A stretch of 64,000 nt of DNA from Cirrosporium novae-zelandiae (taxonomy: Eukaryota): the NCBI GenBank assembly GCA_026023565.1, contig JAPETS010000026.1:124001-188000 (forward strand), written 5' to 3'. Positions 20,944-59,801 of this stretch are shown one piece after another. Below the pieces are notes generated by a model, which worked only from the letters and a program-made list of their open reading frames with translations, was not told the DNA's origin and did no database searches. Every line of letters begins with the position of its first letter. Position 1 is the first letter of the stretch. Made by a program: the position numbers and the translations under genes.

Positions 20944-21681
20944 TGGCTTTTTTTTTTTAGGAAGGTGAGTTGTGGAATTGAAGGTTCGTAGGGCTGAGAG
21001 AGCTTTGGAGTTTGGTTGGTGGTTCAGGCGTCATCGGACCTTATTGGTCCGACTGTTCGTGTAAAAGAAAAGTATTAAAGTACTTTTGGTAATTAGGTAG
21101 GTACTCGAGTTGGAAATGAAAGAACCTAGAAAAGTGACCTTTAGGAAAGGAAAGCCTTCAAATTGATTTATCATTGAAAACCGTTTTTTTTTTAAAAAAA
21201 AGGCCTACCCAGGATCACCTTTTCTAGGTTCCTTTTTTTGAGTCTGGTCGTTTTCATATCTACCTGTTAAACGTATAATTAGTACTATCAATTTTTGTTT
21301 ATGAGAAGTCTGCATGCGGAGCTTATAGTCTATAGTGCGGTCTTTTTTTTTAAGTAATTTCTCAAAGCTATAAGAATAGAATGAGGATCTCTCGTACAAA
21401 GGGATTACTGTTACAGCTTTTTTTTTCATTCCTAGATATTCTAGGAGTATAATGATCCCGTCGATTACCCATTCTATATACCTAAGTAGTAAATTCCAAC
21501 CCAAAGCCCTACTTTTGAATACCAAAGAAGCAATCAAATTCTCATTTTTTATCATACCAAGCATACGGCATTTACCACAACACCTATCAGCAATTATTTC
21601 CATATATAGTGTCGACTCGACATAGATTGATTCCTTCACATAGCCCAGCTAATCCAATTGCTTCCCTTATCTAACCCGAAA

Positions 21682-22422: not shown

Positions 22423-23115
22423 TCCTCGTAGATTGCAATAATATGAATGAACAGTATAAGAACTAATTGAAAGTAGAGTAGTGTAATGAGTGAAGGGTCT
22501 TGTAAACGCGTTGAGTACAAGGTAGTATGTTAAAGGTAAGGAGGCTAATTGCAGAATAATACAGTAGAGCACCGGAGCTTTATACTATGCCTACACCAAG
22601 CTAGGTACTAATCACTAATATTAAGGCATTCATTTAGCTTTGATATTCCTGTAATCATGGCAGATTAACAGGTAGTCATGCCTGTTCTTTGGGATTCCAT
22701 GGGCCAACCACTGATAGAGTACTGTGTACGAGATGCTATTGACTGCAATTTTAAAACCTACTTGGTTCGAGGCTTCCAAACTCCAGTGATGAACACCGAT
22801 GGCTGAAGTTTAGATACAAGTCCTTTGGACCATGAACGACTGCAAATACCTACCGAGGTACCTGTTTAGCCAGGTAGCCAGGTACGTATTAGACAGCGAG
22901 GGGGTAATTTGGTACGCTGGCCCCAAAATAATCAGGACTCACAAACTCGGATCTTCATGTGTTGGGGATTAAAAGTGTGATGTAAAAAATATATAGACTT
23001 GTAGAAGAAGAGGTTATATAGATTTGTAGAAAAAGAAATACTAGCTATATATTCCGCCAAAACGTTATGTGCTCAAAACTAATTCTAATATAGTAACTAT
23101 AATTAACAGGAAAGG

Positions 23116-23266
23116 CGTTACGAAACGACAAGTCACATGACCTACTGTATATGCTCAGTAGATTCCTGAGTCTTGCACCTTAGACTTAGACCACAAGTCA
23201 TACAATCCACACCAGTTATTCACCTAAATAAGAGCCTCACTGAACATTATCCTAGACGTCGTAACA
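23116..23266. mobile_element. Solo LTR (family A) with 5-bp TSD AAAGG
   Basis: AAAGG-[CGTTACGA...TCGTAACA]-AAAGG; terminal inverted bases; similar to 32252-32395. Confidence 0.8.
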
Positions 23267-23464
23267 AAAGGTAACAACATAGTAGTTCTATAATAATTTT
23301 GCCCAAAAAAGAGTTTTTGGAGACTGAAGGGATCTATCATGGTACGTACGTTACGGATACACTAGCACGTGACTAGACATCGGTTAACTCTTCTATTCCC
23401 CGTAGTCACAAAGTCTTCCTCGTCACTCACCTCTATTTTCAATTTGTTACACAACATCGGTATA

Positions 23465-24102
23465 ATGGCCACCACCAGTCCTAAGGGAAATGATACTGAT
23501 ACTTCCGAATATGTTACACTCATCTCGGCTGATGGCTTCGAGTTTGTGGTGCGTAGAAGTGCTGCCTGTATTAGTGGGGCTTTGAGGAGGATGTTGGATC
23601 CTCAAAGTGAGTCTTTCTCCTTCATCAAGTATTCTTGAAGTTTTATTTGGGTTGTGGTTTTGGAGACGAAGGAGCTAAATTGAAGATTTGTTCTTTTCGC
23701 AGCTAATCAATAATATATATAGGTGGCTTCAGAGAATCTACTACAGGTGTCTGCACTCTAGAAAATATCTCGTATGTATTCCTCTTCTTACTCTACTTCT
23801 TCTACCTTAGATACCCTCCCCCTCCCCACCTGCTACTCACCTCCTACTTCAATTCCTTCCACCTCAATCCAGCTAACCCCATCCCCTCACAGTGGCGTGG
23901 TCCTGGAAAAAGTATGTGAATATTTCTACTACAACGAAAAGTACAAGAACCAACAATCTGTTCCCGATATGAATATCCCGCCCGAGTTATGCTTGGAGTT
24001 GCTTTTAGCAGCTGATTACTTAGATAGTGAGTCTCAAAAACCGCCAAAGAAGAGTAATTTTACTACGAGAGAACTATTTTTTGCTGATTTGGAGAAGCTT
24101 GA
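23465..24102 (+). CDS. ELC1: Elongin C (4 exons)
   Basis: YVTLISADGFEFVVRRSAACISG, VLEKVCEYFYY, IPPELCLELLLAADYLD(T*). Confidence 0.92.
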
Positions 24103-25021
24103 GAGAGAACAAAAAATTCGCTGGGGAGGATAGATGAACGGTGATAATGAAGAGGATCGATAAACGATGCCATATGATACGATCCGACACGATAATAAGT
24201 CTGGCGTTAATTGGTAAGAACAAGACCATGGAGGTTTACGACGTTATGAATACGTGAAATGATGAAATATGCCTTGGTTTGATTTGGCATCACATTTCAT
24301 TTCACCTAATCCAACTTCCCCTCAATGGTGAAGTTAGCTCATCCTACAAGGAGGGTCTGTATACTACAAATACTACGAACCATAATAGCCTTTTCAACAT
24401 ACGCGCATATCTATACCTAAAAACCACCAATTCTCCCCACCTAGACCATTTCTAGATTCCTACCAACCAAGGAAGGATGAGGTGTCTAGATATTCCTAAA
24501 TCCTGTAAGAGTCTAACTCAGATGCCATTACCATTTTCGCTCTTCCTTTCCACCCCAAATCTCAAAAAAAAAGCCCCAATCCCAAAGACAACACCATCAC
24601 AGCATATGCGTTCCCCCCTATCTCCTCCATAGGCCGAACGTCTACAATATTTTGATGGAAGATTGAAAGATTTTTTATTTTATCCACTTAATTTAAAGTA
24701 CCTTTTTGTTTTTTTACGTCCGTAAAGGCGGCTTTATACGGAGTGGATACATATAACCCCAATCTATTTTTATTTCAGCCTTGCTCAGTTGTTTGAGATG
24801 CTGGGAGCTAATATTGTATTTTTTTAGAAAATAACTATAAGGATACCACACAAACATTTCCAGCCATAAAACATAATATATTCAACATAAGATAGCTAGG
24901 GTGGTGTAATGGAATACAACTAATCTATATTTAATTTATACAAGAAAAAGAGAAATCCAACTACTCTTCCTTCTAGTTCGAACTCTAAAATCTCCACAAA
25001 CCCCCACATAGCCGTCTAACC

Positions 25022-28000
25022 CTACGCCCTAACAGCATAAGCCACATGATCCGACGTGCTATACGTCCCCTCAGATCTAATTAACATGCAGGAATAATAC
25101 TGAGAAGAATCCCACATGGCGACCATGCAATAAGTACCCCAACTGTTACACCAATCGAGACACTTGGTAAAAGTAGAGATACCTGCCGGGGCACCAGCAG
25201 ATGCGAAATAGGTACCACTGGAGCCAGATGTATAACTTGTAGTGGCGCCACAGTTCATGGTGTAGGCGGTGCCGGACTCGGTAATGGAGCCTGAGGAGTA
25301 GCCGCTGGGGCAATAGGGGGTGTACTTTTTAGCGTATGCGACGGTGGAGGAGACGCTGGAGGTGCCGGCGGCGGAGAGAAGCATGCAGGAGAAGGCTTGG
25401 GTGGAGTCCCACATGGCGACTTGGCAGGTGTCACCCCAGGAGTTGCACCAGTCCATGCATTTAGCCATGCTAGTGATGCCGGCAGCGGTGCCAGCGCTGG
25501 CGAAAAAGGTTCCGCTGGAGCCAGTCGTGTAGCTCATGCTGTGGCCGCAACTCATTTGGTATTGGGTGCTACCTTCAGTGAGGTAGCCGTCGCTGACACC
25601 TGCCGGGCAGTAGGTGGTAGAGCTTGCGGAGGCGCTGCTAGAGGTAGAGGTAGAGGTAGAGGTTGTGGAGGATGAAGAGCTGCTGCTGCTGCTAGTGGAT
25701 GTGGACGTGCTGCTAGTGGATGTGGACGTGCTGCTAGTAGACGTTTTTGTTGATGTTGTTGACGTGCTTGTGGATGTGGTCGTTACAGTCGTTGATGTCT
25801 TCGTTGAGGTGGATGAAGATGTTGAGGATGTTTTGGTTGAGGTCGAAGTTGAGCTTGATGATGTTGAGAAGGTGAAGCATCGGGAACCGAATTGATAAAC
25901 TTGGTCCTTGAGTGTCTGAGCTGACGATACTCCATTAAAGTACATCGAGTTCTTAGTTTCCATAGTAGACACAAGCTTCAGTCCTCCAGCTGGGCAGGTG
26001 CTTGTTCTCTTGGCGAGCGCAGACTTTCTACTATCAATGATGTCGAAAAGAGAGTCGGATCGCTTGGACATGGTTCGGTCGTTGAAGTAGGTTCCGTTAG
26101 CAGCGATTGACCTATCGATAAATTTGGTTCCGTTGGCAGCCATCGACCTCTCTTCAAAATAGGTTCCGTTGGATAGCAGGGCCCTCTTGCTGACGGTGCT
26201 AGCAGACGAAAGCACTTCGGCGTCAAATCCGAGAGTGGTCTGCGTAGTGATACCAGCAGCATTTTGCATTGTGGTCCCGAAAACAACAACCGACATCTCA
26301 ATTGACGTCTTCATGTAAGGTGTCAAAACCACTCTTCCAGCCTTGGTGAACGATGGATAGGTTACACTAGCTGCTGGCTGCCAGCTAGATGGGTTTTCGC
26401 CCTGACTATCTTTTAGATCTAGGGTAGTCTTGGCATTGCTTAATGTCATCGAAGCTCCTCCTTGAACAGTGACAGCGCCGTCCGTCTGCCAGCTAAGTCC
26501 AACACCGTAAATAAATTTGGGACTAGATAGTTAGTTCGAGACTTTTCATATTCAGAATCAAAGAAGTACTTACGCAATGGTGAAGATGTTTGTGGCGGTG
26601 AGCGATGAAAGTGCCAAGGTGGATAGAGCAACATCGATACTGCTGGAGTATGCTGTAACGGTGGTGAGACTCATAACTAGGTTCGATGTGGCGCTATAAG
26701 TGCAAGTAACCGCTGCACCCAATACCGATTTTGTATCCACGACCACTATAAGAACACCCTCAAGTTTGAGAGAAGATACGGCAAGGTTGCAATTGACACA
26801 ATACATCTTGTCGCCTCGGGAAGTAGACGCCAGAAGAGAATTTGCTGGAACAGTGATTGTTACTGTCGACGTGACGTAGACATCAGCCTGTGTGACTGGA
26901 GGGTACGTGCTTGAAGAGGGATGGAGAATTTGATAAAGTGCCAACGCGGCTTGATAGCCATCCTTAAGGTCAGAATAATCTGAGCAAATTTCGCAGAGGG
27001 CATCAATTAGATCATCTGTGAGGAAGTCATCGAGATAATCTAGGGCGGTAGTTAACCAAGACGGAAGGGAAAAACGCTTCTCCGGAGTAAAGGAACGCTT
27101 TTCCGGGACAAGTGTAGCAACTGTTATTGAGGTACTTGTCGCGAAAGTCGAGTCGCTAGAAGTGGCTGAATCAGTAGCAGTAGCAGAAGCACTGTCTGAG
27201 CTACTCGCAGTTGATGAGGCACTAGTATCATCATCACCCTCATATAAGGAATATCCCTCAGGGAGAGTTTCTTGGACATTATCGTCGTCAGTAATGGCAT
27301 AATCAAGGTCAGCAGCACTAGCAAGAGCGGTTAGAGTATTATCAAGGATAATTTCTGGAGTATCGAGTAGATCTGCAGCCAAAGCAGCTTGGAGCTCTGC
27401 CTGATAGTCTGCGTCATCTGGCTTGAAATCATCGACTTCGATTGTCGGAGTCTGCGTAGCCATTGCTCCCAAATATAGTTGAATATACCCATCGTCGTTA
27501 TAGACTATGCCAGCCATGATTTCGTCATACATTTGTTGCTCAGCAGCGGTGAGAGCTGTAGAAGAAGCTGTTGATGAGGTTGTTGAAGCTGTCAATGAGC
27601 TGGAGTCCGAGCTTGTTGAACTACTCGCACTAGTTGAATCTGTAGAATCAGTTGATGTTGTTGTTGAACCAGTTTCGGAGGCGGTTGTGCTAGCTGAATC
27701 AGTCGATGAGGTTGAAGAATCCATGTCTGTGCTAGTGGCGCTGGTTGAATCCGTAGAATCAGTTGATGTTGTTGTTGAACCAGCTTCGGAGGCAGTTGTG
27801 CTAGCTGAATTAGTCGATGAGATTGAAGAGTCCGCGTCTGTACTGGTGGCGCTGGCTGAATCCGTTAAGGATGCCAACGAGCTTGAATCCGTGCCTGTTG
27901 CAGTAGCTGACGACGAGGAGCTTGAGTCGGAGTTGGTTGCACTGGCTGATCCAGTCGAAGACACTGAGGAACCTGAACTGGAACCTGTTCCGCTGGTAGA

Positions 28001-30237
28001 TGCTGACGAAGATCCCGAAGCTGTCGCTGAAGATCCCGTTGCAGACCCTGAGGAGCTTCCATATGAGGTGGTCGTCGTTGTGGCTGAAATCTGAATAGGT
28101 GTGATCGTAGTGAGGTAAGTTGTAGAGGTCAAAGTTCCTGACTGGCTGTAGTATGAAGTCATAATGGTACTATAAGGGGCAGCAGCCTCTGTACCTGTAA
28201 CAACATTGCCATAGCTAATTTCCATAGTTGATGCAACATCTGGCCAAGAACTCGTTGCTACTTGACAGACCATTGTCAAGGACTCTGAATCAGCAGAATA
28301 GCTCTGGACCATATAGACCCCTCTCTCCTTATTTGAATTGCACGTCGCACAGTTTGTGATAAGAACAAGCTCACTCTGAGGCCATTGTTGAGCGGTGGTG
28401 AAAGCTTCTGCGCTTGAGAATGTAATTGTTATTGACGTTCCCGAGCAGGAATAGCTGATAATGTACGCTGAATCCTCAAGAGTGACTTGATTGTACTTCA
28501 TGGCAAACTTGATCGATGCTGCATAGGTACCTTCCTCAGGATCTTCGGCATAATTTAGCGTGCATGTCTTGGATGGAACTAAATAACTAAGATCTGTTCG
28601 ATCAACATTTGGGTTGGCAACTGGGTAGACGGTCTTGTCTGAAGCTGTAGAAGATCCCGATGCTTTGGCGCCAGATGCTGCGGATGCTGAAGGGGAAGAA
28701 TCCTTCGAACTCGAAGCTGAGGGAGACGCCAAAGTGGCCATGCTTGTTGTCATTGCGGATGCAGCATCGGTGAAGGTTTGATAAGGGCAGTAATAAGTAT
28801 AACTAGTATCAATAACCGTAATTGTCTTTTCGGCAGCTTTATACGTCCCAGGTAGATAGGTGATGGTGGCGGTTGCAGCTGTGATCGTCGTTGGTGATGC
28901 CAGAGTTATGGTTCTTGCAGGCTCCGTGAAAGTGCCAGGGCGCGGATAAACGACCATGAAGGTTGGGTTTACCGAAGTAGCTGAGGTTGCGATAGAGCCG
29001 CTGCCAGTGATGGTGGCAGTTACATATGGGCAAACGTAAGTATAGCTCGTCTGTGTAACCGTGATAGTTGTTCCAGGGGCGGTATAGGTACCTGGGAGGT
29101 AGGTTGCCGTCGTTGAGGGGCCAGTTATTGTCGTTGGCGCGGAAAGCATGATAGTTCTAGCTGGGATGGTGTAAACACCAGGGGTTGGACACACCGAAAC
29201 GAATGATCCTGCTGATGCGGCGGCTATAGAGGAGCCACTGCTAGCTGTCGCATATGGGCAAACATAAGTATAGCTAGTCTGCGTAACGGTAATAGTAGTT
29301 CCGGCTGCTGTGTAAGTGCCTGGAAGGTATGTTGCTGTCGTTGATGGACCAGTTATAGTTGTTGGTGCGGATATTACAATCGTTTTGGCTGGAACGGTAT
29401 AGACACCAGGAGTCGGATAAACAGATACGAATGATCCTGCTGAAGCAGCTGCCACAGAAGAGCCGCTGTTGACGGTTGCATACGGGCAAACGTAGGTATA
29501 GCTTGTTTCAGTAGCTGTAATAGTCGTTTCTGGTGCTGTATAAGTGCCAGGCAAGTAGGTTGCCGTTGTTGATGGGCCAGTTATAGTGGTTGGTGCTGAT
29601 AGTACTATTGTCTGGGCTGGAATGGTATAGACACCAGGGGTTGTACAAACTGATACGAATGATCCTGCTAAGGCAGATGCTACGGAAGAGCTGCTGCTAA
29701 GGGTTGCGTAAGGGCAGTAATAGACGTAATCTGTTTCAACAACTGTCACGGTGGCTTCAGGTGCTGCATATGTGCCGGGGTAATAGGTCGTTGTCACTGA
29801 GTTCCCGGTAATGGTGGTCGGCGCGGTCAGCACCATAGTTGTTGCTGGCATAGTATATACACCAGGTGTGGGCATAACAGTTGACATGAATTTTGGCGTG
29901 GATACGACTGGCGAATTGGCACTAGCACTAGCTTGGATGTGAGCACTGATATGAGCTGCAACATCCGTGGCTTGCTGTGCCGCGGCTGCACTGCTCATAT
30001 AAGTCGCCGATGGGCCGGGTTGCACCACTTGACTATTTGTTAGCAACGACCTTGCTAGAAAATGGGGTTTCCCAAAGATAACGTACAGGTGCCTTCTCCC
30101 CAATAGGTTGTCACATAGGTTGTGCAGCCACAGATAGCATCGTTATTGGAGACATCTCTCTTTTCCAAGAGACTTGCAGCCGAGGTGAGCGATGCGAAGA
30201 GCAAGGCTGCCTTGTAGGAAACCGATTTCAGTTGCAT
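25022..30237 (-). CDS. Large (~1700 aa) secreted Ser/Thr-rich modular protein (3 exons)
   Basis: Signal peptide MQLKSVSYKAALLFASLTSA; five ~76-aa PTPGVYT repeats; Cys-containing beta-rich middle domain (DUF7029-like by recollection); S/T linkers; two C-terminal Cys repeats. GT-AG introns near 30.03-30.09 kb and 26.52-26.57 kb join the ORFs in frame. Confidence 0.8.
28790..29890 (-). repeat. Coding tandem repeat, 228-nt (76-aa) unit, ~5 copies
   Basis: GAATGATCCTGC recurs at 29201, 29429 and 29657 (228-nt spacing). Confidence 0.9.
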
Positions 30238-33997: not shown

Positions 33998-36900
33998 CTA
34001 TGAAGTTAAGATAACTACTAGGTCACCGAGATCACGAGCCATCTGCCTTTCTCGGAGTCTAAAAGACTGTCTCAGCTCTTCTTTCATGAGTAATCTCCAT
34101 TGAAAATTCTTTAAAATTGTACCTGGAGAGGCAATTGTACCTGGCGAAGCGATCAACCGTGCAGCACCAGTCCCATTCAGCCTATTCACTTTCACTAGAA
34201 ACAGTGAATCTAACTTCCTAAAGAAGTATCTCCCCTCATGTACTAGGTCCTACGGTGTCGTTATTGATATTTCCGGAGCACGAATGACAGTCGTCTGGAG
34301 TAAGGCACTCCCATTGTTCCAAATAGAGTTAGGACCCCTACATGTGATATTTCCAGATTCTAAGCATTTAAATGAAACGTACGCGAACGTAGCACAATCG
34401 TCAGAATAGCAAGTACCTGAGCCCAATAGCTTCCCCCCGACTCGGAGTATGGAACCTTGAAACCTCGATCGAGATCGTCTGTCCACGGCCAAGCGATCAA
34501 GAAATTCTTCTTTTCTCGGTCGATCCCTGTGTCTTGAAAGGTATTAAGAACTAGATGGATAATCCCTGAAACATAATCATGATACTTCAAAGGTATGGTA
34601 TTAAACCAATTTGTCAATGAATCATCATTTTGGAATGCACTGATAAGGTTATACTCTGTTTCTAGCTCTTCCCATAAATCTCTTTGGGACGGGAAAGCGC
34701 CAGCAAAAACCGGCAGCAAGCCAGCTACCAGCTCCCGCAAAGGGACCCTTCGAGCAACGCTTGTACAATAGCTCACTTGGACGCCCCACGGTTTTTTTAG
34801 GTATGATCTCAACTGGCCCCACGTTTTTGACTCAAGCATGCATTCTTTCAAAGTTTTGCCGCATATTTTGTGCCGGGATGCAACAAATTGCAAGAGAGCA
34901 TAGTTTCCTATCTGAAATCCTCCCTGTATTTCATCGAGGCTCCCCCAGTAAGACCTGAACGAACTCAAAGGTTGTAAGGCGAAAGAGGAATTCTCCCGGC
35001 ATTCCCTTTCATGGTTAGAGCAATTATCATTGATTATAATTGGCGTCCCGACAACGATTTTGGTACGTGTGTCGAAGGTGACGGAGCATCTTTCAAATTT
35101 CACATCTCGACTCCAATGAAATGCACTACTATCCCTATCAGATGCGTATATAATCCCCCCCTATATTAATAGCGCAGGGATATTGATCTTTATCTTTGCG
35201 AATCACAAGATAACCAGGACCCCAGGTGTCAAGAAGATCTTTAGCAGTAGCCAAAATATCGTATTTCTGGTTATTTTCAAGCGGCACGGTTCTTTTAGGG
35301 GCTAAATTCATACGAAAGGCGAACACTGGCCCCCGAGTCATATTTTCCATACACGTGAGATTGATAAGTTGCCCTTCGATCTGTTCATATTGATTTTTGA
35401 ACAATTCGTTGCCTAGTAGTAGAATCATTTTTTGCGGAGTATTTAAAAAAAAGGGGCGAATGACTCCTATATGTGCTTGAGTATAGAACAGAAAGCCTAA
35501 GCAAAGGAATTGTACAGCTAAAGAGCATAATTGAAGGATAGAATCAACGGTATTATTATACAGGAAACTCGTAGCTTCTGGTACGAGTGGTCTGAGTATT
35601 TTCACGGCCGTATTCTGGATTTTAATAGTTTCTGGATCAATAATTTTATTCAGACCTGAAAGACGTTTGATTTCCACCAGTCGCTCTACAGCAAGATTCA
35701 AATCTAATTGCCATAGCTCCACTTGGTCTGGTTTTTCCTTATTATTTGGGTCGAGGCTATTGGCGGGATACTGTAATATAGTAAAACAATCGCAACAAAG
35801 TCCAGCCATTTGAATTTGACCGGCCGCAGAGCAAAAGTCTTCAAGCGTTTTAGTGATTCTAGAGACGATAGTATGACGATTTGGATAGCAGTCATCTGCG
35901 AGTTAATCATATTGTGGTGGAGTGTATCTGTATGCTCATGGACTGTACGTACTTTTAAGTCATAGGAACAGCAAACAAACCAAACTCCAAGATAATATTT
36001 GTAGCCATAGTAGCCATGTACTGACTCGAACACTGTGTCGGTAATTGCGAATGGGCAGGGGTGTAATCGTAGATTGCAAGTCCCTAATTCATGGAATAGA
36101 AATATGAATAGCTAATTGTATAATTGAACGAATAGATCTTTAATTGAATGTATAGTTGGATAGGTAAATCAAAAGCATTTTTGATTGATTCATAGGTAGG
36201 TAGATAGACGTTCCATTTATAGGCAGCTTAATAGATAGAAAAACTTGATGTCTCTTTTATCCTTAGACTCTCGCTGACCCCTTTAACCCTCCGAAAAAGA
36301 AATTAAACCAAATTGCTTTTGTTAGGGGGGCATGCCCACTTACTTCACCATAATATGATACAATATAGCAATAGAATTTTGTTCTTCAAATATGATGCTG
36401 CCATTCCATTCCTTCGGATCGCGAGATATTGGTTTAATTCCAGCTAAATCGCAGAGTTCTTGAACTGTTTTTCCAATATCTATTTCTTCAGTCGACTCAG
36501 TAGGACTCGTACCACTAGCGCAATCTCGATGTGCGTATCCTGGAATATGAATGCCAGATTTTATTTGCGCTTGACGGAATTTGGAAGGTTCAAAATAGAT
36601 CCGAGGGGTATCATTAGCCTCTTCGAATAATAATTCTGCTATCTCGTCATAGCTATATCCCATCCTATTTAATTCACGTATCCATGAATATTCGCTTTCC
36701 GCAACAAGATCGAACCGTTTGGCTAACAACCTTTGTAAGACTTTGACTTCGCGATATTCCAAAGCTTCTTTGATTGTGGTTGGAGGATGAATGAAACGAC
36801 GAAGATTATCCTTAAAATGATTAAATGATGCTCCTTCGGTCAGGAAAGCTACTACTGATTCGAGCTCTTGGAAATCCTTATTCTTTTCATTATTCTCACT

Positions 36901-37428
36901 GCTCTCATTGTCTTCAACCTCACTGCTCCTGTTGCTATCGCTGTCTTCGATAGGAAAGTTTAGTGTTATTATGTTAAGCTCTTCTGGTACTCCCGCCATC
37001 GAAGTTTGCGATTGCAAATATCGATTCAATATAGGCCGAGAATCTGGCTTCTGGGTTTCCAATTGTTGCATAGCTTGTAATCTTTCAGGGCTAGGGTTTA
37101 GATGGTTGTATATTGTTTCGGTCACTTTCCCTCGTCGATATTGTTTTCGAAGTATATGAATAGCCAGTTGCTGAGGTTTATTCTGAGTTTCCAATCTAAG
37201 ATCATAGAAGAACTTTTTCAAAAGGCTATCGTGGTTGTTGGCAAATACCTTTTTATCAACTTTTTTGAAAGCCTCCAGATATAGCTGCCGTAGATCAGTA
37301 TTCTCGTAAAATAGTTTTGCCATATATTCAAGAGCCATTTGATGGAGAACTTGAACGGAGCCCTGTGAAATGCCACTCTCAGTCGAAGCGCTCTGGGAGA
37401 AAATTAATAGAGCCTCCGATACCCCGGA
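33998..37428 (-). pseudogene. Decayed large domain of unknown function, in frame with the upstream lectin-kinase ORF
   Basis: Collinear ORF fragments 36340-37338, 35138-35809, 34360-35103 and 33998-34195, broken by frameshifts (e.g. homopolymer at ~35155), stops and a 450-bp TIR insertion. Confidence 0.7.
35908..36357. mobile_element. MITE-like insertion with 16-bp TIRs and apparent AT duplication
   Basis: Left CATATTGTGGTGGAGT vs right ACTTCACCATAATATG (14/16 inverted match); AT-rich interior; excision restores the host reading frame. Confidence 0.7.
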
Positions 37429-39105
37429 TTAATCATTCGATTCTATGTCTAATCTTGTACTATTTCGCTCTATCTTTGCACAACAAAAACCATAGTACAA
37501 CACACCCGAGTGAGCATCTGGAGGAAAACTTAAAATCGAATCCTTTAAGTATCTTGCATTCCAACGCTTATTCTTGTCCTGCTGTAACATATTGTTGATC
37601 CACTCTAAAGGCTTATTCTCAAATTCAGAGCCTCCACGATCTCGTAGTTCCTTTATCCATAGTAAGATAGCCTTTGGAATCATCCAGTACTTCTCGCTTT
37701 CAGCATCTTTATCGAGAAAGAAGTTTCTCATTCTTTCGATCGTCTCTCCTTTCAGAACTGTTATCATTTCCAAGAAAACGCATCCTAGTGACCAGATGTC
37801 AGAAGATGATCTCGATGATCCATTGCTTGCAGCCTCCGGGGAACAATAAATGGAGCTTTTTCTCATTTCCGCCTTTGTCGTGGCTTGTTCAATATCGGCC
37901 CAGTCCCAAGCCATCCCAAAATCTGTGATTAAAATATTGTTTTTTTTAACCAAAATATTTTGAGGCTTGATATCTTTATGCCGAATGTTAAGAGTGTAAT
38001 GTAGATAAGCAACCGCACTTGATAAGCAACCAAAAAACGACAACAATAAGATCTTTTTATCAATCGCTCCCGGAACTTTGGTGAAGAAGCCAGCTAAATT
38101 GTCCCCTGCAACTGGTGACGTAATTAAACCAACCGTTGTTGAAGTTGTATAACTTTCAATAAATTTGATAAAGTGATATTGACTTTCTCTATCCTTCATC
38201 TTCTTGAAGACTTTTAATTCACTCTCAACATATTTCATCACTTCTAACGTTTCAGAAAACGTATTTTTGCGATTAATTTGCTTCAGCGCATATTCCTTCA
38301 ATCCCAAAACCTTCTGTACATAGCCAAACCCTCCAGATCCTAGATATGCTTTCCATTGCAACTGTTTTGGAGCATCAGAATCGTAATCAAGATTAGTCTC
38401 GGTGAGATGGCAATGCTCGCCTTCCTCTAAGTTAGTGGCCCCGGTACAAACAATCCATTGGGTGTTTAGAAATTGCATGTAAACACCCGGAGCCATTCTA
38501 GTGGGTATGCTTTGTTTGGAGAACGGAAACCAGAGATCGGTGATGCCATTATCAACGAACATTTGCATATACTCCAATTTGTCAATGGCACGTAGAACGA
38601 TATAGATTCTTGGGACGTGACCCCAAGACTCCTTTCCCGTTTCTCGAAGTTGATTAGCAATACGTTGGATTCCGACATCTGAGTATTGTCCTCGATACGT
38701 GAATTCAGCGACCAGTTCTCTGCCTTCGTTTGTGGAGTAATCGATTTTTAGTTTGCTACCCCTTTTTGTTGTTGTCGCGAATGTACTATGTTGCGTCCAA
38801 ATTATATCGCTTTTCAAACCCCCGTAGTAAGCTGGATTAATATTTTTTGCAGTGTCATCCTCTTTAAGATCGGTAACGATATCGCACCACCTCTTGTAAT
38901 TGTGAATGCCGAGAGCCAAGCAAAATATCTCTCCAGAAGAGGATTTATAACGGAGCATCCCAGACGTACCACTGCCATCCATGAAAAGAAAATGGCCGGT
39001 TTCATCTTCAGTCCAAGCAATCCCAGTGGTAAAGCATGTCTTTTCAACAACAGTGAGGGTTTCATCGCTATCGTTGAAGACTGTCAACTTGATGATGTAT
39101 GACAT
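37429..39105 (-). CDS. Fungal fruit-body lectin (ABL/XCL, actinoporin-like fold) fused to a Ser/Thr protein kinase
   Basis: N-term VVEKTCF...W...MDGSGTSGMLRY...LGIHNYKRWCDIVTDL...INPAYY; kinase GSGGFGYV, YALKQI, HKDIKPQNIL, DFG, YCSPE, SDIWSLG all intact. Confidence 0.88.
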   Translation of the reverse strand: MSYIIKLTVFNDSDETLTVVEKTCFTTGIAWTEDETGHFLFMDGSGTSGMLRYKSSSGEIFCLALGIHNYKRWCDIVTDLKEDDTAKNINPAYYGGLKSDIIWTQHSTFATTTKRGSKLKIDYSTNEGRELVAEFTYRGQYSDVGIQRIANQLRETGKESWGHVPRIYIVLRAIDKLEYMQMFVDNGITDLWFPFSKQSIPTRMAPGVYMQFLNTQWIVCTGATNLEEGEHCHLTETNLDYDSDAPKQLQWKAYLGSGGFGYVQKVLGLKEYALKQINRKNTFSETLEVMKYVESELKVFKKMKDRESQYHFIKFIESYTTSTTVGLITSPVAGDNLAGFFTKVPGAIDKKILLLSFFGCLSSAVAYLHYTLNIRHKDIKPQNILVKKNNILITDFGMAWDWADIEQATTKAEMRKSSIYCSPEAASNGSSRSSSDIWSLGCVFLEMITVLKGETIERMRNFFLDKDAESEKYWMIPKAILLWIKELRDRGGSEFENKPLEWINNMLQQDKNKRWNARYLKDSILSFPPDAHSGVLYYGFCCAKIERNSTRLDIESND

Positions 39106-39635
39106 TTTAGATGGTGGATGTAAAGCGTAAGCTGCGTAGCTAGTAAAGAAAACGGGCTTTATGAGCGCTAATTTGTCAATGAAGGGTAAGGCAGTGCACA
39201 CCTAGGGCTCCCACAACGACAATAGCAAGTAGGAAAAGATCATCGCTTTAAGAACTAGCTGCTTGTCATCGCCCCGCGTTCGCTATTTCAGCCTTTCTAC
39301 GAAGCTATGGAATAAGTACTTGGACTGCCACCTCCCGCCTCCTCGGGTTTTCTTGATGGCACCAGGCTTGGGTATCACTGCAGTTTATCCCGAAAATTGT
39401 TCGCCGTGGCTTGCCTTGCATTTTATCTGGCCTATTAGTCGAAAAGTTTTTCCTAGAATCCCTGTCCATGACGCAGACATTTCACTAGAACCACGGGAAC
39501 ATAAGGATAAAGAAGTTCAGTTCTAATAGCATGTTTACGAAAAAGTAGCCCTTATCATTCTATGCTTACGTTAGTCGAACAAATCCTCATTTACATTGTA
39601 CCAAGTTACTAAGAGCTGTGGCAGCATGTGCGGAA

Positions 39636-41627
39636 ATGGATATATTTAGCACAACTATCACCGTCATCCACGAGATCTACGCGATCACTGTCTTTATCCG
39701 GGGCGTTGTCAACGACGTCAGTTCGTACGAGTCAGATAAGAAAGATATCCAAGACAAATTGCAGCATGAATTCGTTTTCATCGATATGTTTAAGATTACT
39801 TTTCTCGACGAGGGTGCAGGTCGGGAGCGCTATATCAAGCAACCTAAGATCTTGCAACAGGACGTAAATATTACCTCAATGAAGCTTCGGAGTATTCTTG
39901 GAGAATATAGGACGGAGGCTGTCAAACATGGCCTCTTGGATCCTCACGATAATGCAGCTAATGAGGGAAGAGTGATTACGGCTAGAGCCGCTATCGCAAT
40001 AGACAATGAAGTATAGATTCAAGTTCACGCACTCCTTAAACAAATCAAGTCAACGGCGAAAGACCTAAAGAAGAAAGGTTTCAATTGGTCTCTATTCGAT
40101 AAGGCAAAGATTCTCCACACGCTGTGTGCATATACCGAATGGGCCCAGCGGCTACGACAAACCATGTCGCTCATGCTTTCCACCATGTTCCTTGGCGGCG
40201 ATGGCTATAACAGCCTAGGCGATTTTGCGAACACTCAAGTAGCAAAGGATATGGGGCTCCAAAACGTGGCAAGACGTCAGGCCCTTATTCGATCCAGCCC
40301 CCCAGGTGACTTCAAGGAACTCGATGGAACTGTTGTTGGAGGGTCTGAGTGGGCAAAGACATCACATCTAAAGATTGCCAAATACGTTGACGGCTGGGAA
40401 TCGGAGCCCAGAGAAGTCGTTTTAGAGTATCGGAAGTATAATAAAATACTAGCACTAGCAACTCGTTTTAGGCATGCAGCAGTTATCCGTCAGCTAAAAG
40501 AACCTATCAGAAAACTGGCTTGGCTGCTTCACAGCTCCACATTCCTGGATGGCAACGATGAAAGCCCTATGGGTACAGCCAACTATTCAACTTTGCTCGC
40601 TTTACAATGCATCGGCTACCTCGACCAGCCAGATCAATGCCAGACCATCTTTCTATACGAACTTCCGCAAGCAACAACTTTATGGGGAAATTCATGGATC
40701 ACAACACTTCACGACCTTATCAACAGCGTTGATCCCATAACGAAATACGCATTGCCCAAACCTGTTCTAGGACATCGCTTCTTCCTTTCTTATGCCCTTG
40801 CCTTAACGGTACTCAATATACATAGCTCCCGCTGGGTTCACGAGAATATCTCGAGCCATGGTGTTGTTGTATTTCCCGCACCTAACTTGTCTCGTCCCTC
40901 CGGAGCCCAGCGTTTAATTCCATACCTCACAGGCTGGGAATCTGCTCGGCCCATTCTCGGGGACACGGAACTAAGGCCTAATATCGAAATTGAGCCGAAT
41001 CTATATCACCACCCGATTCGCCAGGGGCAGCCGACAAGCCGATTTACCGCCGAGTATGATATCTATGCGCTTGGGGTCGTGTTGATGGAAATCGGGCTGT
41101 GGAAAACCATGAACAGTGTTTTCCATCAACAGATTGAAAAGGCTTTACGTGAAAACATATCGCCACCATTAATGTGAAGGCAGCGCTTAATACAGGCAGT
41201 GTGGTAGACTAGTGAGGCAAAGGAATATATAACTAATAGGTATAATATGCTATTCGCATGCTAGACGCAAGTAATGATGATAGCTTTCGAAGTGCTCCTT
41301 CTGTAGATACAAAAGTCGAACGCTGCCTTGATGAATCAAGCAGCGTTCTCCTACATAAAGGTTTGGCCACGCGCCAAGCCTCGCCTATGCGCCTACGAAG
41401 CGCATATGCTTGGCACGCCGTTACAATTAACCATGGTGAAGAGGAGGTGGGCTACCACGGCACGCCGAGAAGTAGAGGGTGAAATGGGAGAGGCTTATGC
41501 AGAAGCAGTTGACAGGTGCTTGATGGGGAGATTTGGTGTGGAAGACAATGGAGTTGAAAATAGTGGACTGCCTATAGCGTTTAGAGATTTGGTGGTAGAG
41601 GTTATGAGGCAGGGAATAAAGCTGTAA
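39636..41627 (+). pseudogene. HeLo-like N-terminal domain + kinase-like (pseudokinase) protein, disrupted
   Basis: Hydrophobic N-terminal helix, WSLFDKAKILHTL (HeLo-like W-x-x-F-D-K); kinase-like WVHENISS, PYLTGWESARP, LYHHP, YDIYALGVVLMEIGLW, MGEAYAEAVDRCL; in-frame TAG at 40014-40016 and solo LTR at 41173-41425. Confidence 0.78.
41173..41425. mobile_element. Solo LTR (family B) with 5-bp TSD ATTAA, inserted in coding sequence
   Basis: ATTAA-[TGTGAAGG...CCGTTACA]-ATTAA; near-identical segment at 59631-59801; diverged copy at 44231-44483. Confidence 0.88.
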
Positions 41628-45511: not shown

Positions 45512-47767
45512 ATGACCGAAGTAGGCCGGCTTTCAAAAGACGACTAGCGCCGTCGTCGTGAAGCCAGAAACCAAGGAATCAGGGAGATAAAAGAGCATGC
45601 GGCTCCTACCAAAAAAGCTTTCAACTGGGGTCGAAGGCTGTGGTCGAAGTGAGTTTTGTATAGATCCACTATATACTTACACTAGCTACTAATATCAAGC
45701 GTTGAGGTACTGTGGAGAATTTGGATATACCCCCAACGGTCATGTAGCCAAATGTGACGTCGATGACTTTGAAGAATTTCTAGACTGGTGTTTGACTCCA
45801 CAGAACTCAAATATCAAACAGAAAAGCTCTCTTATACAATTATGGACATGGGTACGGTGCATGTATATCGAAGCCACGGGAAAGAAAATCACTCATGATA
45901 TTAATAAACGAATGGATTTTGTAAGTTGCCTACCGTTATAATCCAGATTTGTGGTAATGATTTTCAGGTTATCGAGCAACTAGCGAAAAGTGCAGGACTA
46001 AACTCCCAAAAAGCAAACAAGCCATGTTTAGGAGTGGATGATGCAATTCTTATTTTGGAGTCTCTTTGGAGCAGGATGAATCTTGCCTTTTCAAACGAAC
46101 GGCATAGAGTCCAGCTTTCGCTATTGATCCTTATCCATGCTTTCACGACTCAACGCCCCGGCTCTATTGTTGAAAGTAGTGACTACTACGGAACAAATAG
46201 ATGTTTGTGCTACAAACATGTCCACCTGCTTCTTGTTCCCAACCCAGAGGAACTAGGTCGCCCCATCATTATTATGGAACTGAAGCTAGAGCATCTCAAA
46301 GGAAAACGGGAGGAGAAAACTGGACCGTAAGATTCCACTAATAAATAATCACAAAATTGGGAAACTGATATCATGTAATTAGGTTGATATTTGTCTTTTA
46401 TGAAAGAGATGACTGTCTTGTGTTGTGTCCAATAGCTCATATGTTAGGCCTCGCATTTGCTGACAACGCATTTGAATCGGATTTCATAAAATGTCCCGAA
46501 GATATTTTCAAACTTGAGATACCTCCCTCTCGCCGGAGTATAGAGCTGAAATGGAAACCTGAGATGTTTGATATCCCGGTTTTCCGCGGCATTGGACATG
46601 ATGGGTCAGTCTCAAAAACACGAGCCCTTACATACAATGTGTTTTTTCATGACCTCGAAAGGATCGGGGACGTAGCCGGCTTCCCTATGAAGGTTACTCC
46701 ATATTGCATTCGTCGAGCTGGAGGCATGGCACTTGATGGTAAGCTTGTTCAAATAATCGTAGTATTAACTTTTTAGTTGATTAAATCGCTGATTATATGC
46801 AGAAACCACCACAGCTGCATTACGCAATCAAGCAATGGGACATGGCAGATCAAGCGTGTATCAAACCTATTATATGAGTTCCTATGTTAATGCTGATGTG
46901 CAAGCTGCATATCTTGGGGTACCTTCCAATAAGGCCCTATTCCGTGCTGTGGGGCGCATGTCTCTTCGAAGTGATGCCCGCGCACCCACTAGCCTTACCG
47001 ACGAGCAAAAGGCCGAGCTGGAACAAGACCCCTCGCTTATAGCATTGAGAAACGAAGTCCAAAGTATCAAGGAAGCAATCTCAAAAGAGTACGGCATAGT
47101 AACAAAGTCGAAAGGCACGGCGCTTTACAAAAGCTATATCAACGCACAAAACAGATATCGCTGGACGAGATACTCATTAAACCGTAAACGTAAAGCTATG
47201 GCCAGACAGAAATTCTTCGACACTATCGATACAATTGAAGTTGACCGACAGCTTGCAACCAAACTTAATCAAAAAAATCAAACCACAGCACTCGATAGTG
47301 ACAAAAGTGATCCGAAACAAGTATTCGAAATTCAGGAAAGAGCCATCCTGGTTGAGAACCTATTCCAACCTCAATCCCAACTTTCAGACCGCATTTTGGT
47401 AATACAAGCCATGACTGGGCTGTGCCGTCGAAGAGAGATGCCGGGAAAAACCCCAGGGGATCGGAGAACTCATCCAGCCAAGGAAGCCAAAATGGAAGAA
47501 TCGAAAAATCAACATTTCAACATACCTATAATCTTGAAATCCGTGCAGTGCATATTTTGTATAGGCGACACAAGATTGCCAATACGATCCCGTACCTACT
47601 CTTTCTCTCGGCCAGACGCGATACGGAGGCATATGGAACATTCTCATTACAGGCATATACCAAAAACTGTTACTATCGAGTGCCCGCATCCAGAATGTAA
47701 AGAGAGACTCACTGGAGTCGATCATCTGAAAAATCACGCACAAGTGGTACACGGAATCACCTCCTAG
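45512..47767 (+). CDS. Starship captain: DUF3435 tyrosine recombinase with C-terminal C2H2-like zinc fingers (5 exons; TAG at codon 12 in my gene model)
   Basis: RHRVQLSLLILIHAFTTQRPGSIVES, LCYKHV, CPIAHMLGLAFADNAF, LKWK...IPVFR, PYCIRR, RNQAMGH, YQTYY; CIFC...H...H and CPHPEC...HLKNHAQVVH. Confidence 0.9.
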
Positions 47768-53437: not shown

Positions 53438-56400
53438 CTATGCTAAACGAGGTCGCTTTGCTTGTCGCCCACTCTCGTCCGGGTTGGCACGCTTCTTGCC
53501 TCGCGGTTCACAGCATGGTGTTTGACACCCCTGGCACCAAATTCCTGTTGACTTTTTATGTTGGGCAGAGCCAAACGGGGAATCTAGATTCTGCTCTTTA
53601 ATAAACCAACCTAAAGTCTGTGGGAGACCACTGAGTCTCCGGTGGACCTTTTGACCTATCCTTATTGAAATGTTGATAGGATCATCTAAACCTCGAGCAT
53701 AAAAGCTGACCTGCTTACGATAGCGGTGGCAGAAAGAGCAAATATCAACAGTCTTATCCAACGCTCCTATCGTTAAAGGACCCATTGTGAATTCGATTTC
53801 TCCTGGATACAAACGTGTCAGAATCTGGATAAAAACACTGCTATTAATGCGGCATCGAATGAACCCCTGGCATCGATAAATCCCGGAGTCGAATTGAGGC
53901 ATAGAAGATAGCTCAAAATATAGAGAAGAAACCAAGAGGGCAAACACGGTATTTTGCCACTGTGCTGAGTTTCCGGGTTGGGCGTGAACACGGGTTTGGA
54001 GTTCTTCCATCTTATCTATATCGTCAAGACAGGGCTCGGAACCGGAAAAAGAAACATTTAATCGAAAATAATCCATTTTTGAATGTTTATCTAGACGATT
54101 CCGGAGAGATTTCCACGAAGACTGCCCATCAAGAGAAGACATAAACGATCTATACAATCTAGGACCGAACCCGTCTCGGAAAATATGACGGAATTTGGTT
54201 ATTTTTGGAGATTGAGCCATATTTTCCCCGGTCCCTGTTCCCAGAGAAACAACGACATCAGGATTTCCCGTCGCGGGCCAGATGTGTTGGCTTTCCCAAA
54301 GTGCAGGATCAAGAGGACAGTTGTATTTAAGACCGCCATTTTGGAAGGATCCCAAACCGGAAACATGAGCAGAAGGGAAAGCTCTGCAACTCTATTAATA
54401 TACTCGATGCGCCAAGGACAACGACGGATGGATAAAACTTACAAAGGAGCAGCCGAGGTTGCACGACCCCTATTGCTTGAGTTAGCTTTATTTGGTGGCC
54501 AAGTTTCACTATGCTTACGCTTCCCATATATATGGCTCGTTCTCGGGTGATATCGGCCTTATATGTTTGTACCCACAATTCTTTTCACGCAAGCCAATGC
54601 CGTTGTAATTGGAAAACAAGCACAGCGAAGCATCAGATATGCTTGTTGCGGTCACTGCAACTTTCGTGCCAGAGATAGTACCATGAGTACAATCGAACAT
54701 TCGATGCTTTACTCCAAAGCTTTCTTTCAATGCTTGCTCAAGAGCTTCAGCATCGTAAAAGCCATCGGAGAGCCAACAGCGGATCAATTGTCGTATATGT
54801 CCAAACAACGAGTGGTTTGATTTACGCATTTTACCGAAATAGCTTGTGGCGAGGGCTTTAAACATCCGCAAACACTGTGATATGTTCCATTGTTGAATAA
54901 ATAAACCAAGGACAATAAGCCCACCTACGTAGACTAGTTAGATAGATTTGGACTTTTGGGTTTAGTTAACATACCGGAGCTAGTCCCCACAGCAAGGTCG
55001 AAGAAATCTTGAATCCGGCAATCAGAGCCAAGTACATTCTGGAGAGCCGATAACATTTCCAATGGAACAATCCCCCGCACACCACCTCCGTCAATGCTTA
55101 AAATTCGAACTCCAGCCGTTGGTGGCTTAAGTCGTACCGTTAAAGAGTTTCCTTTTTGACAAAGAACACATGCCGAGAGCATATAATGATGTTCTAGTCC
55201 AAGGACGTCCTCTCCGAGGATTTCGACACATGTGTCACAAATGCTATGACCGCATTGAAAGACGTGTTCTGGCTTACGGCGAAGACAGAACAAACAAGTC
55301 GTGTTGAGCTTGATTAAGGGCCAGTATTCTGCGTTTACTCGAATATTTTTGAGATGGACCTGAGATGATGAATTGCATTCTTTGATAGTGGGTTGCAGCT
55401 TTATAAGATGGTCTTCTATCGCGCGGCATTGAGATTCTGCAAAGGAAGTATCTTGGTTGAACGTTTCAAAAGCAACAAGGCAGGGTGTTCGATAAAGCCG
55501 ATGGAATACCAATTTCGGATCAAAGTCTACCCCCAAAATTAGGATTTGTTTCTACAATCTTCGATCATGAAGCTTACCATGCATCCCCGGAGGGTAGGCG
55601 TCCATCAAAATACTTGAAGCTATAAACAATGTAATAGCTGGATCAGGGAGTTTATGTTTGGCACAAACCCTTACGAAATCGAGAATATGATTTTGGAAAT
55701 TGTTGTCAAGGCTGTTTTGATTCCTTGAAGCTAGAATGAAATCAAAGCATGAATGCAATGTACTTGCGGTATGTTGTACTGCTAACCCAAAGAAAGCTTC
55801 AAGATGCAATGCCGAAAAAAGAAATTGATGTTGCAAACGAGTTTCTCGAGCATCGTCCAAATCATTGAGAATGATCTCTTTCAGTCGCCGGTGGCGAGCC
55901 AGAGATGACAGATGTTTTCCCGGAAGCGACACTAATTTGATCGAAGAAAAAGACTGCGACAAATCTGGCTGCTGTAGACTGTGACGGAATTCGTTTTCTT
56001 TAAGCATCAGGTGAGTTGTGCTTCCATAAGAATTAGACGTGATAACGATCACCTTCGGTCGTAAGGGTAGAGGCAAGTCTGACGCAGAATGGATACTGGC
56101 CCATATTTTTAGATGTTGGGCGACAGCCTCAAAGCCGCCATAGTCATCCGCAAAAAGACACAGAACATCAGTAAAAAGAAAGAACAGACGTGCAAAAATA
56201 ATGTCTGGTATACTATGTGAGCAATAACCAGGCCAAGAAATTGGAACAATTGTCCTTTCATGACAGTTGAACGTATTTTGTACATCCCGAACCTGCGGGA
56301 AAGGGACAGCATCGGCAAAAAAGATTGGATAATTAGAGTTTGAAGTAGAATAATCCAATCGTAAATTTGCAATACCTTGAGATTGACGTCGTCCGATATT

Positions 56401-56589: not shown

Positions 56590-56822
56590 TTTTTTTTGTA
56601 GTTGACGTTAGAAAGATAAGAAACTTGATGAAAGAAACAGTATTGAGTGGTTGTTGTTGCTGTCAATGGCTGTCCCTTGGTCTTTTTATATTGGGACCTA
56701 CGTCCACTTCCATGAACCTCCGTGAAATGGGGTCCCCCTTTCCTCGCGCCTCGTAGTACCCTGACACTATTAAGGTATGTCACAGTCAAAGCAGATGATG
56801 CCCAACTCCATTTTCCTAACAA

Positions 56823-59414: not shown

Positions 59415-59464
59415 CGGAAATAGGAAAAATTGATCACACTTAGACGACATCTGTGGAGAAAGAT

Positions 59465-59629: not shown

Positions 59630-59630
59630 T

Positions 59631-59801
59631 CGCATGCAAGACGCAAGTAATGATGATAGCTTTCGAAGTGCTCCTTCTGTAGATACAAAAGTCGAACGCT
59701 GCCTTGATGAATCAAGCAGCGTTCTCCTACATAAGGGTTTGGCCACGCGCCAAGCCTCGCCTATGCGCCTATGAAGCGCATATGCTTGGCATGCCGTTAC
59801 A
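59631..59801. mobile_element. 5'-truncated LTR (family B)
   Basis: Near-identical to 41255-41425, ending GCCGTTACA. Confidence 0.85.

Follow-up and report, generated by a model that had tools for sequence, protein, structure and literature searches.

Is a pair of neighbouring fungal genes, one coding for an active protein kinase and the other for a kinase-like protein without catalytic residues, a counterpart of RIPK3 and MLKL in necroptosis? The question is raised by a locus of Cirrosporium novae-zelandiae (GenBank assembly GCA_026023565.1, contig JAPETS010000026.1, positions 124,001 to 188,000 of the forward strand). This stretch of 64,000 nt is called the window here, and all positions are counted from its first letter. 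Within it two genes lie head to head, their ATGs at 39105 and 39636 being separated by 530 bp. Gene A, on the minus strand, codes for a lectin-kinase, and gene B, on the plus strand, for a predicted pseudokinase with a putative HeLo-type N-terminal domain. A first-pass annotation, made from the sequence alone, had described this divergent pair and taken it for a glycan-sensing kinase which activates a pore former next door; the arrangement itself was found exactly as described. Chance can be excluded as the origin of either open reading frame (ORF), since both have strong homologues (E 6e-170 for gene B and 3e-140 for gene A). As set out below, we read the locus as a copy, now decayed, of a two-gene module which is widespread in Pezizomycotina and apparently undescribed.

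Relatives of gene B are found next to kinase genes

That homologs of gene B would be linked to active kinase genes in other genomes had been set as a check for the idea of a functional pair, and this prediction was borne out. We collected 80 metagenome loci from unnamed species, which were picked by similarity to gene B alone and merged at a nucleotide identity of at least 90% into 63 clusters. The six-frame ORFs of these loci were searched with profiles of the kinase family of gene A and of gene B. With at least 2 kb of sequence upstream of gene B, 34 of the 63 clusters were evaluable. A divergent Pkinase gene is located within 3.5 kb upstream in 24 of these 34 loci, and in another four (L014, L033, L069 and L077) the kinase gene is found downstream instead. 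In a comparison by distance, which serves as a control, 34 kinase ORFs occur in the 274,436 bp of flanking sequence within 4 kb of gene B, none in the 202,110 bp lying beyond on the same contigs, and most of the kinase ORFs in these related loci end 120–950 bp from the start of gene B. All of the 26 neighbour ORFs sent to Pfam scored above the Pkinase gathering threshold (46.7–149 bits). As more distant kinases were possibly missed by our own profile, this count of linked loci would be conservative.

Independently of the metagenome loci, the same adjacency can be read from the locus tags of two named genomes. The kinase FGG08_000482 adjoins the gene B relative FGG08_000481 in Glutinoglossum americanum, and FQN49_002894 adjoins FQN49_002893 in Arthroderma sp. 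PD_2. For two more species, Polytolypa hystricis and Arthroderma uncinatum, the contig with the kinase and the contig with the gene B relative are equal in length. Furthermore, the identity between two gene B proteins correlates with the identity between their partner kinases (Pearson r 0.58 for 31 pairs, a value reached by none of 2000 permutations; r 0.46 when near-duplicates are left out). Therefore, the pairs tend to diverge together. These results show that kinase and HeLo-pseudokinase form a conserved two-gene unit, usually in head-to-head orientation. The window holds the same arrangement, a family B gene and an active kinase gene which are divergent and within ~3 kb of each other.

A family of predicted pseudokinases with a putative HeLo-type N-terminus

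For database searches the frame of gene B was read through, with an X at the stop. This gave 73 relatives of 374–602 aa across Pezizomycotina, including Fusarium, Aspergillus, Penicillium, Talaromyces, Coccidioides, Arthroderma, Exophiala and Glutinoglossum; the family is also present in Onygenales and lichen fungi. The best intact relative, P0003, has 571 aa and is 55% identical to gene B (E 6e-170). At the level of the superfamily, 5400 representative clusters were counted at E ≤ 1e-3 and 4042 at E ≤ 1e-10. When gene B was searched in three pieces, these matched positions 1–109, 126–501 and 499–566 of the family profile, the last with 59.8 bits.

Intact relatives of 545–600 aa carry the Pfam domain DUF7580, with or without HeLo. 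Among 38 aligned members of the family, DUF7580 was found in 33, HeLo (PF14479) in 24, with a best E of 8.7e-10, and Pkinase weakly in 8. On gene B itself DUF7580 (PF24476) reaches 17–18 bits, which is under the cut-off of 27; proteins carrying PF24476 are matched by gene B at E 6e-170 to 1e-80, and by homology to these members it can be assigned to the DUF7580 family.

The AlphaFold2 model of the gene B protein (predicted local distance difference test, pLDDT, 77) consists of an N-terminal helical part and a kinase fold starting at about residue 220. The modelled C-terminal part superposes on solved kinases with Z 15–17 over residues ~220–513 (Foldseek probability 1.00). Where an active kinase has the HRD..N motif gene B reads VHENISSHG, and in place of DFG it has GWE (within YLTGWESARP). 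The loss of the catalytic Asp (HENISS) and of DFG (LTGW), which the first reading of this DNA had pointed out in a kinase-like domain, is thereby confirmed. It is not peculiar to the window. In a census of 183 family sequences, drawn from 43 loci and 141 database representatives besides the window, the most frequent residue in the column of the catalytic Asp is S (93), followed by N (64), D (13) and G (9), and the column of the DFG Asp mostly has G (124), then D (28) and N (25). A Thr or Ser of the activation segment, ~10 residues past the DFG column, is conserved in 165 of 179 sequences and corresponds to Thr444 in the window. Judged by motifs and model, the members of the gene B family are predicted to be pseudokinases. 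Compared to solved structures, the family profile gives weak matches to IRAK4 (E 1.3e-3) and to MLKL pseudokinase domains (E 3e-3 to 6e-3) and is thus no closer to MLKL than to IRAK4.

The N-terminal part is modelled with helices at residues 3–27, 35–57, 61–97 and 129–146 and a long one at 156–187 (pLDDT 78 for this part alone). The N-terminal columns align throughout the family, and the Pfam matches of the relatives are the main reason for placing the N-terminus of gene B, suggestively, in the HeLo family. In structural superpositions with VIA-align, the model matched the coiled-coil (CC) domain of Rx (Z 9.9, root-mean-square deviation (rmsd) 3.4, 103 residues aligned), the CC domain of MLA13 (Z 7.8), MLKL's four-helix bundle (4HB; 4btf residues 2–117; Z 7.3, rmsd 2.9, 95 aligned), HET-S (2wvo; Z 6.9, rmsd 4.3, 121 aligned), AtMLKL3 (6ka4; Z 6.7) and the MLKL N-terminal domain (Z 6.6); these scores are within the range which helical bundles reach by arrangement alone, and unrelated bundles score alike. 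The HeLo-like N-terminus claimed in the first-pass annotation depends on the match of the relatives to PF14479 and on a modest likeness of fold.

Gene A and the kinases found beside gene B relatives

A fruit-body lectin fused to a kinase with all catalytic motifs had been described in gene A, and this is what Pfam finds. The FB_lectin domain (PF07367) covers residues 1–134 with E 1.3e-40 and 139 bits (cut-off 25; profile positions 1–139 of 140), and Pkinase (PF00069) covers residues 253–521 with E 2.9e-34 and 119 bits (cut-off 31.7). Residues 1–135 align end to end with the Xerocomus lectin XCL (1x99) at E 2e-30; BEL, SRL and ABL follow among the solved lectins, the overall range being E 2e-30 to 3e-21. 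These fungal fruit-body lectins resemble the first 135 residues of gene A along their whole length. They are stand-alone proteins of ~140 aa, whereas the lectin of gene A is fused to a kinase. In the motif columns, the kinase keeps the glycine loop GxGxxG, the lysine of ALK, HKDIKPQN and DFG. Activity is therefore predicted for it, the catalytic loop being of the non-RD type (HKD).

Gene A scores 379 bits against our profile of its own kinase family. Its alignment with P0075 takes in 96% of the query and shows no difference. A further relative is a lectin-kinase of 541 aa (E 3e-140). The kinase family is large, with 746 database hits, most of which have other added domains; among the best 120 of these 746 hits the lectin-kinase fusion occurs elsewhere only in P0076, P0079, P0080 and P0081. 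The kinases of solved structure which match gene A best are PDK1, NEK1 and CDKL5, rather than RIP kinases. The core motif [IV]Q[IVLC]G of RHIM, the RIP homotypic interaction motif, does not occur in the sequence of gene A, therefore no amyloid necrosome is to be expected.

At the other loci, 41 neighbour kinase ORFs were identified, redundant loci counted in, 39 of which cover the catalytic loop. The catalytic Asp is present in 39 out of 39 and the DFG Asp in 38 out of 40. Thus, the partners look active and the gene B family does not. The loop reads HGD in 31 of the 39 (L002, L003, L027, L034 and 27 others); this and the HKD of the window are non-RD loops, which are typical of innate-immune kinases such as IRAKs.

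Two kinds of partner can be distinguished. The common kind has an HGD loop, ankyrin repeats and a length of ~1200–1400 aa. When the 32 largest of 120 candidate ORFs were sent to Pfam, ankyrin repeats appeared in the ORF after the kinase at 17 of the 26 loci tested. All 63 of the 63 long relatives (731–1448 aa) of the partner at L002 combine Pkinase and Ank domains. The rarer kind belongs to the kinase family of gene A, has an HRD or HKD loop and is found in the window, at L001 (two copies) and at L006/L016. Both neighbour kinases at L001 carry ankyrin repeats, and no recognisable repeats were seen in the partners at L016, L012 and L018. The sensor part of the partner varies among loci. At L024, an ORF with DUF7104 repeats (4903–5181, minus strand) is located just beyond a kinase ORF of 1168 codons (5189–8692), which is itself without an ankyrin match.

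For the glycan-sensing lectin-kinase which had been proposed as the activator this means that the lectin is present in the window and does not extend to the family, in which the partner is usually an ankyrin-kinase; no lectin match was obtained in any of the 80 gene B loci, so that a lectin-kinase beside a family B gene is seen only in the window. On the side of the kinase, the comparison with RIPK3 holds for the logic and not for descent. The best solved matches of the partner kinases are PDK1 and NEK, or IRE1, ASK1 and LRRK2, and neither kind of kinase resembles RIPK3 more than it resembles other kinases. In addition, Pfam finds no NACHT or NB-ARC (NOD) domain in the neighbour kinase genes.

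Gene B of the window is a young pseudogene

Gene B forms a single frame which is interrupted by a TAG at codon 127 and by four stops between 41175 and ~41300 (Table 1). Both lesions that had first been noticed in this gene, the TAG and a long terminal repeat (LTR), were indeed found. The TAG falls in a poorly conserved linker, which is modelled with low confidence. The stops after 41175 are all within a TG...CA element of 253 bp, on either side of which the 5 bp ATTAA are repeated directly. Element and one ATTAA add up to 258 bp, and because this number is divisible by three the frame of gene B picks up again behind the element; the resumed frame (..SPPL-T-MVKRRW..) matches intact relatives (..LLKKRWTRTLREEVE..).

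The last 172 nt of the element occur a second time in the window with 98% identity, both copies ending in GTTACA. Read evidence comes from contigs of X1, the only public run found to contain this DNA; it is a DNA run, possibly of the source sample, and hence not independent evidence. In these, word depth is 12,000–25,800 inside 41128–41423 compared to ~360–390 in the flanks, and loose contig ends lie exactly at 41173 and 41425. One contig, covering 39500–40232, spans the TAG without any differing letter and another one bridges the left LTR junction. We interpret the element as the solo LTR of a retroelement which is present in many copies. Its second copy is directly abutted by three tandem repeats of 51 nt (59460–59629, 93–96% identity), which occupy the position of the 5' 81 nt of the LTR inside gene B. 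As these 81 nt are replaced there, the LTR family is variable at its 5' end.

Apart from the two lesions, gene B is well preserved. It departs from 6 of the 88 columns conserved at 90% or more, and two intact relatives are much the same in this respect (6 of 97 columns in one, 5 of 95 in the other); a long decay was rejected on this ground. Repeat-induced point mutation (RIP) was likewise dismissed as the source of the TAG, there being no RIP signature in gene B (TpA/ApT 0.74, (CpA+TpG)/(ApC+GpT) 1.27). Therefore, the breakage is recent and gene B is a young pseudogene, from which it follows that the module is dead in this genome. The lectin-kinase is here either an orphan or put to another task.

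A proposed mechanism and its alternatives

We lean towards reading the pair as a two-gene module in which a sensor-kinase activates an MLKL-like HeLo-pseudokinase, that is, as a counterpart of RIPK3-MLKL which does without amyloids and without NOD-like receptors (NLRs). Gene A would provide a catalytically competent Ser/Thr kinase with a putative sensor, in most loci a C-terminal ankyrin array and here an N-terminal lectin. The product of gene B would be MLKL-like, with a HeLo-type bundle whose first helix is hydrophobic, a long linker helix and a kinase fold devoid of catalytic residues. What we infer from this for binding, phosphorylation, acceptor site, HeLo release, membrane attack, sensing and biological role is the following course of events. 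The sensor part of the kinase would be engaged, in the window by a glycan. The kinase would then phosphorylate its neighbour's pseudokinase domain, at the Thr/Ser which is conserved in the activation segment, and that domain would release the HeLo bundle, and the bundle may finally insert into the membrane and kill the cell. Activation by a sensor-switched kinase is the most economical mechanism for the pair. The more far-reaching statement, that a necroptosis-like death system without amyloid or NLR is widespread in filamentous ascomycetes, being encoded by a compact pair of genes, and that in it a sensor-kinase phosphorylates the adjacent MLKL-like HeLo protein, which then permeabilises the membrane of its own cell, is put forward tentatively, as a possibility for which we would not yet claim the greater probability.

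Several observations weigh against our reading. No kinase neighbour was detected in six of the 34 evaluable loci (L008, L037, L064, L070, L071 and L078), and the Spearman coefficient of the co-divergence is just 0.26. Concerning the killing domain, Pfam does not detect HeLo on the N-terminus of gene B itself, even at E 10; a Foldseek search with the N-terminal model returned nothing at E ≤ 0.001, and the Z scores given above are of the unspecific kind. The three loci with the rarer kind of partner require three changes of state on a quick IQ-TREE phylogeny of 60 gene B sequences, in which support is weak for several of the branches concerned. Finally, with gene B broken the pair cannot work in this genome in the way described.

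Gene A itself raises further objections. It is not of the common partner type, and the nearest named relative of the window's gene B, P0008, is paired with that common type (FGG08_000482), with which gene A shares 27% identity over 71 residues only; the two kinds of partner are thus remote from each other in sequence. Most members of its large kinase family that can be checked by locus tag do not adjoin gene B relatives: in Glutinoglossum the kinases FGG08_006737, 006785 and 003866 are away from the gene B relative FGG08_000481, and in Trichoglossum M1813_002989 and 006148 are away from M1813_007289. Adding the lack of lectin matches at the other loci and the remains of mobile elements nearby (the LTR and genes with DUF3435 and DUF3723), one may suppose that the module is real elsewhere and that here the ancestral ankyrin-kinase was lost or replaced, the lectin-kinase, as a member of a large and mobile family, having landed beside a dying gene B to which it is adjacent without function. 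We regard this as unlikely, though as the most serious of the alternatives. The kinase family of gene A is also found divergently upstream of gene B at L001, in two copies, and at L006/L016, which are unrelated loci. Since the 202 kb of flanking sequence beyond 4 kb from gene B contain no kinase of any type, a chance landing head to head at a distance of 530 bp is improbable. Moreover, the window contains no remnant of an ankyrin-kinase; a tblastn search with four such kinases gave just a weak generic kinase match, which is inside gene A.

Another possibility is that the two genes belong together and follow a different logic. The kinase could restrain the HeLo-pseudokinase, as an antidote or guard, or the pseudokinase could be a scaffold or allosteric partner in signalling which is not lethal. 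Linkage, co-divergence and the asymmetry of an active and an inactive partner fit this as well as they fit activation. For an antidote, a broken effector next to an intact kinase is the only safe order of loss, and a role as scaffold or allosteric switch is frequent among pseudokinases, according to the accessible part of a review (PMC13519141). However, those domains of the HeLo family which have been studied up to now are death effectors that target membranes, and MLKL is activated by phosphorylation, as stated in the accessible sections of PMC12881547. We consider a different logic of this kind somewhat less probable still than an accidental neighbourhood in the window. That linkage is due to shared regulation or block inheritance (a bidirectional promoter, a fast-evolving accessory region) without a direct biochemical link is improbable: the association shown is genomic alone, but it spans thousands of family clusters and several classes of fungi, survives a change of orientation (the four loci with the kinase downstream) as well as a change of the kinase family, and joins an active kinase to a kinase-fold protein which keeps the Thr/Ser of the activation segment.

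Relation to known cell death systems

Activation of a HeLo-pseudokinase by its neighbour kinase, the reading favoured here, invites comparison with RIPK3-MLKL. MLKL combines an N-terminal helical bundle with a linker helix and, at the C-terminus, a pseudokinase domain; this layout is predicted for gene B, too, the bundle of which is putatively of the HeLo/4HB class. Its activation segment contains a hydroxyl residue, and a Thr/Ser is conserved at this place in the gene B family, too; an upstream active kinase is presumed for gene B as well. The partner kinases in fungi are not RIPK-like, therefore the likeness on the kinase side is one of logic and not of descent. A further difference is that in the fungal pair the kinase itself carries the sensor part, whether ankyrin or lectin. 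Unlike the fungal genes, RIPK3 and MLKL are not known to be neighbours with a shared intergenic region in animals. Plant MLKLs (AtMLKL1-3, Pm13), in the accessible accounts of them, have a HeLo-type N-terminus joined to a kinase or pseudokinase domain, as is putatively the case in gene B, and a role in immunity. To our knowledge, no conserved neighbouring activator kinase has been described for them.

Among fungal systems, the gene clusters NWD2/HET-S, FNT1/HELLF and PNT1/HELLP also place a HeLo effector beside a presumed activator with a repeat sensor (PMC12881547, accessible part). In clusters of the NWD2/HET-S type the effector ends in an amyloid motif, the neighbour is an NLR and the signal is passed on by templating, whereas gene B ends in a pseudokinase domain, has a kinase as its neighbour and would be controlled by phosphorylation. 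In the gasdermin/protease clusters of fungi a pore-former lies beside its activating enzyme, which is often fused to ANK, TPR or WD40 (same source, with the same restriction). These work by protease cleavage; for the fungal pair a kinase, an effector of the HeLo type and a reversible phosphorylation are proposed.

The same review notes HELL/HeLo proteins of fungi that also contain a kinase or pseudokinase domain, and gene B would be one of them. In its accessible sections the review gives the architecture only and does not name the partner kinase gene, the gene pair or the ankyrin or lectin sensor. Our literature search retrieved no description of the gene pair and, for the HeLo-pseudokinase architecture alone, just this review; no full-text paper using the name DUF7580 was found, and the accessible part of a survey of NLR effectors (10.1101/2022.03.16.484565) makes no mention of the pair. 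Its novelty is therefore provisional.

So far, the link between fungal HeLo proteins and necroptosis has been based on the HeLo/4HB domain and on RHIM-like amyloids. The step from kinase to MLKL has been missing; it would be provided by a conserved pair in which an active kinase accompanies a HeLo-pseudokinase, and it would become directly testable because the position of the genes names the candidate activator. If the reading holds, activation of a HeLo-pseudokinase by a kinase must be an old principle of eukaryotes or else have originated at least two times, and one and the same executioner would be given new targets by exchanging the sensor (ankyrin or lectin) or even the family of the kinase. 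To this the window adds a rare version with a lectin as the putative sensor, which suggests modular retargeting, and a dated case of the death of a module, with a stop codon and an LTR insertion in the effector and an intact kinase.

Gene models and organization of the locus

The features of the locus are compiled in Table 1. The two proteins of the pair are those annotated at NCBI as M1834_004229 and M1834_004230 (metagenome-assembled Cirrosporium novae-zelandiae), except for differences in the gene models. M1834_004229 is a protein of 884 aa in which the ORF of gene A is joined to the ORF 36340–37338 by a 113-nt GT..AG intron. The homologs P0076, P0079 and P0081 (541–569 aa) share a C-terminal tail with a CxxC motif, and because the intron would cut out this conserved tail we prefer the product of 558 aa and consider the longer model less likely. 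The ORF 36340–37338 itself (minus strand, 332 aa), which is located directly downstream of gene A, is an orphan gene or not a gene; it matches no Pfam family and has no useful neighbour in the ESM Atlas (best score 0.78). In the model of M1834_004230 (P0002, 561 aa) an intron skirts the TAG and the protein ends in another frame, inside the LTR. With a stop hidden in an intron and an out-of-frame end, this model is regarded as an artefact. The region between the two ATGs may contain a bidirectional promoter common to both genes.

Table 1. Features of the gene A/gene B locus and positions in the window
Feature	Position	Strand	Remarks
Gene A, lectin-kinase	37429..39105	-	single exon, 558 aa, stop codon counted in
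FB_lectin domain, gene A residues 1-134	38704..39105	-	Pfam PF07367
Kinase domain, gene A residues 253-521	37543..38349	-	Pfam PF00069; LGSGGFG, ALK, HKDIKPQN, DFG
Intergenic region between divergent ATGs	39106..39635	.	530 bp
Gene B, HeLo-type/DUF7580 predicted pseudokinase, pseudogene	39636..41627	+	one frame, TAG and solo LTR
N-terminal helical domain, gene B residues 1-190	39636..40205	+	putative HeLo-type; hydrophobic first helix; AlphaFold2 model
In-frame TAG, gene B codon 127	40014..40016	+	poorly conserved linker
Predicted pseudokinase domain, gene B from residue ~220	40293..41172	+	VHENISSHG for HRDxKxxN, GWE for DFG, Thr444
Solo LTR in gene B	41173..41425	.	253 bp, TG...CA, ATTAA at 41168-41172 and 41426-41430
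Last coding piece of gene B	41426..41627	+	..MVKRRW...EMGEAYAEAVDRCL...GIKL and stop; in frame with the 5' part
Second copy, 3' part of LTR	59630..59801	.	172 nt, 98% identity, same 3' end

Other features of the window

The pair lies just left of a region which comprises a DUF3435 gene of the tyrosine-recombinase type, a patatin-like fragment and a DUF3723 gene (45908–47764, 54937–55551 and 56820–59411), a set that we take to be typical of the giant mobile elements called Starships. The DUF3435 gene is divided among three ORFs, which use two frames and are separated by 41 and 19 nt, and being split in this way it is probably degenerate. To the left of the pair, an ORF of 1190 codons with DUF7029 (26573–30142, minus strand) looks repeat-rich: it contains three tandem repeats of 228 nt with 76–77% identity at 29011–29716 and two repeats of 111 nt at 27621–27842. 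The left 23 kb of the window hold ordinary housekeeping genes. A queuosine-salvage gene (Q_salvage, 15557–16847, minus strand) is represented by two ORFs which are 226 nt apart, for which an intron is the likely cause.

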